A stretch of 64,000 bases of DNA from a virus (Duplodnaviria; Caudoviricetes). The stretch spans positions 1 through 64,000 of the IMG/VR virus record IMGVR_UViG_3300031992_000042; one strand, written 5' to 3'. Both the position numbers and the translations under genes were made by a program. Below are positions 49,447 to 51,636 of this stretch, piece by piece. The notes under the pieces were generated by a model, which was given only the letters and a program-made list of their open reading frames with translations, ran no database searches and was not told the DNA's origin. Every line of letters starts with the position of its first letter. Within the stretch, counting starts at the first letter, position 1.

Positions 49447-49821
49447 TTAAAATAGACCTTCAGCCCAATCAAGACTGCCACCACCAAGTTGTTTTTCGGC
49501 AGCTTTCTTTGCTGATGCTTTATCATCACTTTTAATAATTTTAATTTGACCCATAAGTCCCATAACACCAGTATTAGTTTTTCCACCATTTTTAATAAGC
49601 GGATTAGCTGCTTGAATAATTTTTGAAGAATCCTTTGCAAAGCTATTTCCATATAGATTAGAAATGGACTCATAATTTAACCGTTTTCCTAGTGCTTCTA
49701 ATACTGCATTAAACCATATATAAGCCATATTGTTTATTTTGTTTTCGTCTACCTCGCCCAGGTGAGCTGCTACGGCAGCTGCCGCCTCATCTAAACTTAA
49801 TGCTTCGCCTGGGCTTCCTTG
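49447..49821 (-). CDS. tail assembly chaperone, -1 frameshift extension (gpT-like)
   Basis: open -1 frame from the slippery site through 49447. Confidence 0.7.
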   Translation of the reverse strand, partial: QGSPGEALSLDEAAAAVAAHLGEVDENKINNMAYIWFNAVLEALGKRLNYESISNLYGNSFAKDSSKIIQAANPLIKNGGKTNTGVMGLMGQIKIIKSDDKASAKKAAEKQLGGGSLDWAEGLF

Positions 49822-50348
49822 TTTTTTCTTGCTGCTTCTTCTTTTTCGTCTATATGATTAAGACGCCCAAAGATTTTACAAATACGGTCAATTGTCTCTG
49901 CATCTAAGTTGTCATAGTTATCTCTGACTAAAGTAGAATTATCAAATGCAGCAACAAGAAAATCATATAATAATTGGTCTGCATCGCGGCGTTCATCTAA
50001 AACGCCTTTTCCATAGGTTAAGAACTCATGTAAAGGTATGGCTTTGATAATTCCGTAAGCAGACGCAGCTTTATTTCGAAAGTATTTAAGCTTGGTAGGT
50101 TTAAGTTCTATTTTTTGATCTCCTACCATTACGCAGTTTTCTTCTAATAAATCGGATGGTTTTTCCTCTTTTTCCGGAGAAACTTTAGGTATAGTTTCAA
50201 CTCTTACAGATTCTTGCGGAATAGTATTAATTGTAGGAGTTTGACTCGGTTGTTCTTTATTCAATTCAACCGCTGCAGGTTTTTCTTTATCAACAATATT
50301 TTCTTCTGGTAATTCTTTTAATTTGCTTATATTTGGAAATTTAGTCAT
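49797..50348 (-). CDS. tail assembly chaperone (gpG-like)
   Basis: between major tail protein and TMP; A AAA AAC slippery site near 3' end. Confidence 0.75.
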   Translation of the reverse strand: MTKFPNISKLKELPEENIVDKEKPAAVELNKEQPSQTPTINTIPQESVRVETIPKVSPEKEEKPSDLLEENCVMVGDQKIELKPTKLKYFRNKAASAYGIIKAIPLHEFLTYGKGVLDERRDADQLLYDFLVAAFDNSTLVRDNYDNLDAETIDRICKIFGRLNHIDEKEEAARKNKEAQAKH

Positions 50349-50415
50349 TAACCCTTTCTCCCTTCAAAGACGCTTTTGCGTCTGTTTAGACATCTATTGT
50401 CTAAAAAATAAAAAA

Positions 50416-50440
50416 GGGGGGTACCATATAGGTACCCCCC
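50416..50440 (-). terminator. terminator after the major tail protein gene
   Basis: ggggggtacc-loop-ggtacccccc then T-run. Confidence 0.7.
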
Positions 50441-50477
50441 TGTTCTTAATCCTTGGTACCTTTTAAAACCTTTTAGA

Positions 50478-51058
50478 TTAAGCATTCTTGCCAACAAAGG
50501 CGATAGAATAGGTAGCTTCGTCAGGGCGCTTGGCATCCATAGCAGCCAGCGTGAAGCCGAAGGTATTCGCAGTCTTGTAGGACGCATCGAAACCCGGAGC
50601 CTGCGTAACACGAGCATTGTAAACACGAACCAGAACATAACCGATAATAGAGCTATCTGTGCAGTTTTCGCCAGAACCGTAAACCGGATATTTCATGATC
50701 GCTTCACCACGAGCGGAGCTGCGGTTGTCAATGTTTGCTTCTTGAGCTTCTACAGAATAGAAATAAGAAACAGCAACATCGTTTTCAACGTCGCCTGCAA
50801 AGAAGATAATCTTAGCGACTTCGCCAGATGTATCAACCTTGAACTTTCCTTTAACAGGTGTTTGCGCTGTTTCTTCAAGCCCAGCAATAGAAACAGAACC
50901 TGTAATTGGAATCTTTGCTAAATCAACTTCGTTCGTGCCGTCAACGGTCAGAATTTCAGTAATTGGCATCTGATAATGTTCGTTCGTTTCAAAGTTGGTA
51001 GCATTCGCCATAACAAACAGGTCAGCTTCAAACTTACCTGAAGTAATGGACATCTCAA
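50478..51058 (-). CDS. major tail (tube) protein, exon 2
   Basis: in frame with exon 1 after intron removal; highly expressed codon style. Confidence 0.8.
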
Positions 51059-51443
51059 CATTTTGTTCAACTGAGGGCGCTAACCTCAGCCCGCTTATTA
51101 AGCTGCTGCACATTGCTGTGCAGTTCAGACTATCTCTTCACCCTATTAAATAGGGGCTCTTCTTTTCGACCCGCTTGGGCCTACACCTTTCGGTTAGTCG
51201 TTACACATTCAAACAGAAATCCAATGGAGATTATTGGTTTTATTAAGTTTTCCTCTGATACATTTTATAATCGCACTTGCATCTGCCCCGGTTTGACGTT
51301 GAGCTTCTGCTGCAGATTCATATTCAACACCAGTTTCAATAAATAATCATATAACCACCTATTTCTGTTCTTAGCACGGGATTGTCCCAATGGGAGTTTC
51401 CCCGTTTAGAAGAGTAATTTATAGTCCGCCCAAGAGATTGTTT
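51059..51443 (-). ncRNA. group I intron, 385 nt
   Basis: exon U before the splice site, terminal G, P1 with U.G, P/Q/R/S-like core elements, splicing restores frame. Confidence 0.88.
51209..51350 (-). pseudogene. deleted homing endonuclease remnant inside the intron
   Basis: AGGTGG RBS plus MIIY start fused out of frame to a NUMOD1/IENR1-like segment IETGVEYESAAEAQRQTG...IIKCIRGK...HW. Confidence 0.7.
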
Positions 51444-51636
51444 AGGTGGACTGACCGGGTAAATAAGCCACAGGATACAGAGACCAACCAGCGTTAATTT
51501 CTGTATAGTTAACCTGAGGCGTTACGGTCGCATTAGTGAGTTCATCGAAATAGAACACGCGACCATCGCAGCGTTTAAACCACAGCCGCGGCACGTCGGC
51601 AACGTATCCGTTAAACTCTTTAACATAAGTAGCCAT
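51444..51636 (-). CDS. major tail (tube) protein, exon 1
   Basis: GAGGT RBS, MATYVKEFNG...LPGQST. Confidence 0.8.

Follow-up and report, generated by a model that had tools for sequence, protein, structure and literature searches.

A predicted group I intron with a decayed homing endonuclease gene in the single tail tube gene of an uncultured phage

On the minus strand of the window, the whole 64-kb stretch of DNA analysed here, a gene of 257 codons lies in two pieces that are separated by 385 nt (Table 1). The insert begins AAACAATCTC and ends AACAAAATG at 51059 in minus-strand letters, and the exon boundaries at 51444/51443 and 51059/51058 read ...CCC GGT CAG TCC ACC T, intron, TT GAG ATG TCC... 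on this strand, placing the insertion point in phase 1 of codon 65. The sequence-only reading had proposed a group I intron in a major tail protein gene here, and its intron coordinates as well as its exon and intron end letters all agree with the minus strand. The ORFs around the gene encode 564, 527 and 333 aa upstream and 183, 93 and then 4682 aa downstream. The 183-aa ORF (49447-50348, minus strand) lies directly downstream, in the place expected for a tail assembly chaperone, and has a weak PHROG match to 'head-tail adaptor' (E 0.0034); the 93-aa ORF overlaps and follows it, and the two could form a chaperone frameshift pair.

Table 1. Features of the interrupted tail tube gene and of the predicted intron, with positions in the window
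Feature	Position	Strand	Details
Exon 1, tail tube gene	51444..51636	-	codons 1-64 and base 1 of codon 65 (T, 51444)
Group I intron (predicted)	51059..51443	-	385 nt; IA-like, with P7.1/P7.2; terminal G at 51059
P1 and internal guide	51396..51452	-	exon AGUCCACCU (51452-51444) pairs with GGGCGGACU
P3			CUCUUC / GAAGAG
P4			ACGGG / CCCGU
P5			UCCC / GGGA
P6			2 pairs
P6a, stem and loop	51194..51348	-	10 pairs, GAACAGAAAU / AUUUCUGUUU; endonuclease remnant in loop
Endonuclease remnant, C-terminal	51209..51340	-	43 codons; NUMOD-like helix-turn-helix; out of frame, no start codon
P7			GACUA / UAGUC
P7.1			ACC-GAAA-GGU
P7.2			GGCCC / GGGUC, loop AAGC (GGCCC-AAGC-GGGUC)
P8			7 pairs
P9			7 pairs, GCAA loop
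P9.1a			GCUU / AAGC
P9.1			CUGAGG / CCUCAG
211-aa read-through ORF	50478..51113	-	ATG inside P9, through intron 3' end into exon 2
Exon 2, tail tube gene	50478..51058	-	TT of codon 65, codons 66-257, stop
Intrinsic terminator	50415..50441	-	directly 3' of tube gene; 11-bp stem, 8 G-C pairs, then T run

Several lines of evidence support the proposed identity of the host gene as that of a siphovirus tail tube, or major tail, protein. A full-length profile of 50 homologs matches the solved tail tube chains 8k98_A and 9jgh_A at E 5e-6, and an AlphaFold model of the 257-aa protein, of moderate quality only (pLDDT 73), resembles in Foldseek the tail tube of phage SPR (8xkn_B and 8ygm_A; E 1e-11, TM 0.62-0.68), followed by the tubes of JBD30, Chi, YSD1 and Mystique. 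Judged by ORF size, the gene order would fit the place expected in a late operon, between the head-tail joining genes and those for the chaperone and tape measure. PHROG 2729 ('virion structural protein') matches exon 2 at profile positions 66-244 of 252, leaving unmatched the first ~65 positions, which is about the length of exon 1. The precomputed family for the tube protein is PF27173, and a scan with a copy of Pfam that does not contain this family gave no match. Neither the tube gene DNA (megablast) nor the protein (tblastn) had a match among 50,697 cultured or deposited phage records, and the gene and its intron were not found in any cultured phage of that collection. For the SPR tube, structurally the closest, the solved structure also includes a bound portion of the defence protein DSR2.

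Joining the exons in silico gives 774 nt, that is 257 codons and a stop, in which codon 65 is composed of T (51444) and TT (51058-51057) to read TTT, for Phe. The predicted spliced junction DNA brings ...GTCCACCT onto TTGAGATG and would encode the junction-spanning peptide ...GQSTFEMSITSGK... of the 257-aa product; in the intron-less form the uninterrupted sequence across the junction is ...CAGTCCACCTTTGAGATGTCC... At every residue the joined product matches P0121, an uninterrupted 257-aa protein from JGI/IMG metagenome data, and it differs by one residue from P0001, which is also uninterrupted. Taken separately, the 64 residues read from exon 1 agree 100% with residues 1-64 of both proteins, and exon 2 encodes exactly residues 66-257 of P0121. 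P0121 supports the junction under either origin, since a protein read from DNA would represent an intron-less allele and one read from a metatranscriptome a spliced message. Moreover, at least 33 distinct uninterrupted DNA junctions in related loci read through as ...PGQSTFEMSITS... and, when the exons are aligned with homologs, they adjoin with only one invariant Phe absent between them (...LPGQST-F-EMSITSGKF...), the very residue that the join supplies. The continuous STFEMS expected of intron-less homologs is seen in the alignment, and the product anticipated from splicing exists as a natural protein.

Without splicing the frame runs ACC TAA, as had been pointed out from the sequence, and the 5' ORF in the ORF list ends ...PGQST-stop. 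Because TAA sits at the splice site, unspliced RNA would yield a 64-aa stub only. It is conceivable that this stub is put to use, a 64-aa N-terminal piece assembling with a C-terminal piece of 191 or 211 aa into a split tube protein, with the insert as a selfish element. Gene callers do output the C-terminal piece (P0122, P0123), and M67 lies just past the junction. However, neither candidate start is preceded by a Shine-Dalgarno sequence, the insert divides codon 65 so that the invariant F65 would be lost, and the insert folds fully as a group I intron, with a guide that fits, and co-varies with, both exons (see below), all of which makes a split protein extremely unlikely. Homologs also do not encode the two parts as separate proteins: exon 2 alone as a query retrieves 149 of them, mostly single proteins of 255-271 aa. 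The 211-aa ORF is a gene-calling artefact, a mis-annotated truncated tube protein whose ATG lies in the P9 stem with no Shine-Dalgarno sequence seen upstream. Its product equals the public protein P0122, known from two assemblies (contigs), which argues that the window intron is not an assembly artefact. Such calls are common, as 15 of the 120 closest protein clusters look like exon 2 only, starting at M67 or just upstream in the intron 3' end. At this locus gene callers give P0122 (211 aa) and an orphan 64-aa stub, and it takes recognition of the intron to restore the 257-aa tube protein.

We consider it very probable that the insert is a self-splicing group I intron of a common phage type, IA-like, that resides in the single tail tube gene and whose endonuclease gene has decayed. 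When the whole window was searched on both strands with 4227 Rfam families, the sole match was RF00028, the group I catalytic intron (55.3 bits, E 2.6e-11; 51453-51106, minus strand), over model positions 1-253, the full model, and above the gathering score of 50; this match recurred on the whole genome record. This Infernal-type check through Rfam bears out the group I assignment, and the core strings quoted in the sequence-only reading are located in P4, P4', P7 and J8/7-P7' of the Rfam alignment. P1 comprises nine positions with the proposed U.G at the splice site, where the U preceding the 5' splice site ends exon ...CCACCU on guide GGGCGG..., and with one A.C mismatch that had gone unmentioned and is kept in all four introns at this site. 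The P10 strand AUCUC is located in the P1 loop, with the J-region UAUAAAUUA coming next, and forms the five pairs claimed for it with exon GAGAU, at a 2-nt offset from the 3' splice site (two U.U positions); the 3' terminus of the intron is ...AAAAUG at 51059, with G as its last base. Both the A.C mismatch and the P10 offset are common to relatives, including ones with an intact endonuclease gene. Free-energy folding alone finds P1, P3, P4, P5, P6/6a, P7.1, P7.2, P8, P9 and P9.1 (z = -2.6) and misses only the P7 pseudoknot and P10; a P2 hairpin is absent from the drawn structure. P7.1 and P7.2 lie between P7 and P3', are seen in the free-energy fold and mark the intron as IA-like; IA2, as against IA1 or IA3, would be a tentative assignment.

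The pairings also hold when introns are compared. Among the four introns at this site, compensatory double changes occur at 19 pairs, in P1, P10, P5, P7.1, P7.2, P9, P9.1a and P9.1. In the related contig L009 the codon for Ser63 is AGC, not TCC, and two guide positions have changed accordingly (pairs GC to AU and CG to GC); a P10 pair has changed from CG to UA, the exon reading GAAAU in place of GAGAU and the guide AUUUC. In a wider alignment of the 3' domains of 12 introns, drawn from five sites in the tube gene family, 93% of cells are paired versus 29-43% with the partners slid, and both sides have changed in 26 of 37 pairs, a value that none of 500 shuffles reached; all eight pairs of P7.1 and P7.2 co-vary. 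Taken together, the Rfam match, the identity to P0121 and the compensatory changes in P1 and P10 of a relative support the intron, its splice sites and its predicted product.

It could be argued that the ribozyme is a decaying relic that no longer splices, leaving the tube gene a pseudogene and the record that of a defective phage, since the endonuclease gene is clearly dead and the Rfam score lies just 5 bits above the cut-off. However, every helix is intact, the residues invariant across the 12 family introns are all present in the window copy, and the exons are without lesion and specify a product identical to an uninterrupted natural protein. The score is modest because P6 carries a 159-nt insert and P2 is missing, and scores are even lower, 26-41 bits, for sister introns whose endonuclease gene is intact. 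Thus, a relic appears very unlikely, and the features of the locus fit a working intron that has lost its mobility gene.

The origin of this loss can be traced in relatives. In contigs L007 and L009 the same intron occupies this site and has in its P6a loop an ORF of ~204-213 aa that encodes GIY-YIG (PF01541) and NUMOD3 domains; these loops are ~470 bases longer than that of the window. The window loop keeps the RBS AGGTGG and ATG ATT ATT, followed by TAT TGA, and because ~470 nt are missing after ATG ATT ATT the ORF is reduced to four codons, M-I-I-Y-stop. The out-of-frame remnant is 79% identical (34/43; E 4e-23) to residues 162-204 of the GIY-YIG protein encoded by the L007 intron and has weak family matches to Pfam PF22083 (E 3.8e-4) and to a PHROG HNH/HTH family (E 1.3e-3). 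Both this remnant and the sister introns in relatives had been overlooked in the sequence-only reading. Contig L050 lacks the endonuclease ORF entirely, and a GAGA tetraloop caps its P6a. An intact homing endonuclease gene is therefore absent from the window intron and present in those of L007 and L009. To judge from what is left of the gene, the window intron descends from a mobile intron with a GIY-YIG gene in its P6a loop. Since the ~470-nt deletion destroyed that gene the intron would be unable to home alone and is most likely immobile on its own, but it could be mobilised in trans by the endonuclease of a co-infecting relative. A single site displays four stages of a homing intron: with the full gene (L007, L009), with a remnant (window), with no ORF (L050) and empty (P0121, P0001).

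Homologous introns occur at the codon 65 site in L007, L009 and L050. The presence of the same intron at the same site in these independent contigs, together with an allele found in two assemblies, leaves it hardly conceivable that the insert represents a different type of intervening element, whether intein, group II intron, translational bypass or assembly chimera. An intein was rejected as stops occur in every reading frame and the two exons do not share a frame across the 385 nt, which is not a multiple of three; a group II intron was rejected as 385 nt is too short and the Rfam scan gave no group II match; translational bypass was rejected along with the intein, group II and chimera readings.

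The group I intron at codon 65 belongs to a larger family. When 50 related loci were searched by tblastn with the tube protein, insertions were seen at residues ~20/21, ~56, 64/65 (the site in the window), ~186 and ~231/233. A probable sixth site follows residue 71, where L050 has a second intron, and a probable seventh follows residue 224, where P0124 has a break and near which contig L165 has an intron. One intron family occupies at least five sites, and probably seven, in the tube gene across related phages. Three insertions each are present in the tube genes of L007 (553-3991) and L008 (1559-5145), and all three in L007 contain a separate GIY-YIG ORF (198, 213 and 231 aa). The matches of the related insertions to RF00028 are on the coding strand and lie directly before the exon that follows; they score 21-41 bits, for the most part at E 2e-7 to 8e-3. 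The 3' domains of these insertions align with that of the window intron. At the gathering threshold, however, Rfam found no intron match in 15 related loci, because the endonuclease ORFs split the model and keep the sister introns below threshold; a scan at gathering score only would misleadingly suggest that the insertions of relatives are not introns. L050 (1427-1982) has the ORF-less intron, a 20-nt micro-exon (TTGAGATGCAAATCACGAGT) and then the second intron, in which a separate P1, likewise closed by U.G, is present and a GIY-YIG ORF begins; the contig ends within this intron. P0124, ~99.6% identical to the window tube protein, breaks after residue 224, with ...PGFDAS followed by LVGLRDAA; P0077 and P0083 are grouped with P0124 in this observation. 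L165 (10448-10629, minus strand) has a small intron at about residue 224 of a distant tube gene, and its P3-P5 core is nearly identical to that of the window. This pattern suggests that members of one intron family have moved from site to site. The 90%-identity cluster of the window contains uninterrupted products, the 211-aa ORF product (P0122) and a product ending after residue 224, which is what a gene interrupted at a different site should yield. The metagenome loci are biased against introns at the codon 65 site and give no frequency estimate, because the scan peptide, PG[QA]STFEM, spans that junction. The core motif AGGGTGAAGAGATAGTCT (J8/7-P7') occurs in at least 113 viral contigs and is too generic to define relatives, whereas a two-part P3-P4...P4' pattern is specific, with 3 matches.

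In the alignment all insertion sites fall in invariant blocks of the tube protein, and tube proteins at least 99% identical to one another come from intron-less alleles, window-type alleles and apparently also other-site alleles. Perhaps, though we deem it unlikely, the invariant-block tube gene is a battlefield of one radiating GIY-YIG intron family in an SPbeta-like phage clade, and endonuclease-driven gene conversion in co-infection is a main driver of tube-protein exchange between rivals. If so, the conversion of tube segments might act in marker exclusion, or might propagate variants able to evade host defences that sense the tube.

By analogy with other group I introns, splicing in vivo would be a two-step reaction initiated by guanosine that leads to the 257-aa tube protein. 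The late transcript would fold, and a free guanosine bound in P7 would attack after the U of the U.G pair closing P1; the freed end of exon 1, held by P1 and aligned by P10, would then attack after the terminal G at 51059, and the ligated mRNA would be translated into the tube protein. Presumably, as in T4 td, the TAA at the splice site keeps ribosomes off the folding ribozyme. The claim that tail assembly should depend on ribozyme splicing is soundly argued, since the tube gene is present in a single copy, in two pieces, in the 105.7-kb record, which is estimated to be 77% complete, so that there is a small chance of a second tube gene in the rest of the genome. The intron would persist since tails can form only while the ribozyme functions; selection on an essential virion gene would have maintained this function beyond the death of the mobility gene.

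Outside the window, this phage contains another group I intron (201 nt, RF00028 at 69.4 bits; G000 81918-82118, plus strand, corresponding to L016:1512-1712), which interrupts a tRNA gene in the tRNA cluster. When it is removed in silico from between CUU and AAAA, an 86-nt class II tRNA-Leu(UAA) remains that ARAGORN accepts, whereas the gene is not detected by ARAGORN in its unspliced form. This position, between U34 and A35, is also that of the well-known tRNA-Leu intron of cyanobacteria and plastids.

The ribozyme in the tube gene is an ordinary phage group I intron, since its 3' half (intron nt 234-385) shares 71-77% DNA identity with introns of cultured phages and its J8/7-P7' motif is so widespread. 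These matches lie in the DNA polymerase genes of T7-like Acinetobacter, Klebsiella, Erwinia and Ralstonia phages and in the lysin genes of Staphylococcus (epidermidis) phages; host genes, guide sequences and 5' halves differ, whereas the ribozyme class is shared. Dead endonuclease genes in working introns are familiar from T4, whose I-TevIII is an HNH-family enzyme. The nrdB intron of T4 still splices with a defunct, truncated I-TevIII gene and is moved in trans (PMC2790892), which sets a precedent for the predicted state of the window intron (PMC2988022, PMC2790892). As in the td intron with I-TevI, a GIY-YIG gene is looped out from a peripheral helix of a phage group I intron, and in the endonuclease a NUMOD linker connects the catalytic domain at the N-terminus with a helix-turn-helix at the C-terminus; the T4 introns, however, lie in nucleotide-metabolism genes (PMC2988022, PMC2790892).

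A tail tube gene had been regarded as a less familiar host for a phage group I intron, but this view does not hold against orf142 of phage Twort. The introns of orf142 are not known to contain ORFs, whereas the intron family described here carries GIY-YIG genes in varied states of decay. As far as the account in PMC11878797 goes, orf142 is the tail tube gene and contains three group I introns with exon skipping (Landthaler and Shub 1999, as cited in PMC11878797), so that introns in tail tube genes were already known and the window intron is a further case. Measured against that account, the systems share group I introns in the tail tube gene of a large phage, several per gene, as in L007 and L008, and they differ in that Twort has a myovirus tube and exon skipping, whereas here the tube is of the siphovirus (SPR/SPbeta-like) type and the window has a single intron. 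Other virion genes are targeted in Cluster J mycobacteriophages, in which introns are spliced from capsid (LittleE) and minor tail (BAKA/Optimus) genes, as confirmed by RT-PCR (PMC3706429). These too are group I introns in siphovirus virion genes, with an endonuclease gene in one version and none in a related one, a splice site after U, an intron-terminal G and a presence that varies among close relatives; in contrast to the RT-PCR-confirmed Cluster J introns with their LAGLIDADG genes and other host genes, the intron described here belongs to a GIY-YIG family and is known from sequence (PMC3706429). The case leaves knowledge of group I introns unchanged and adds an uncultured lineage to the phages whose virion genes are targets of introns.
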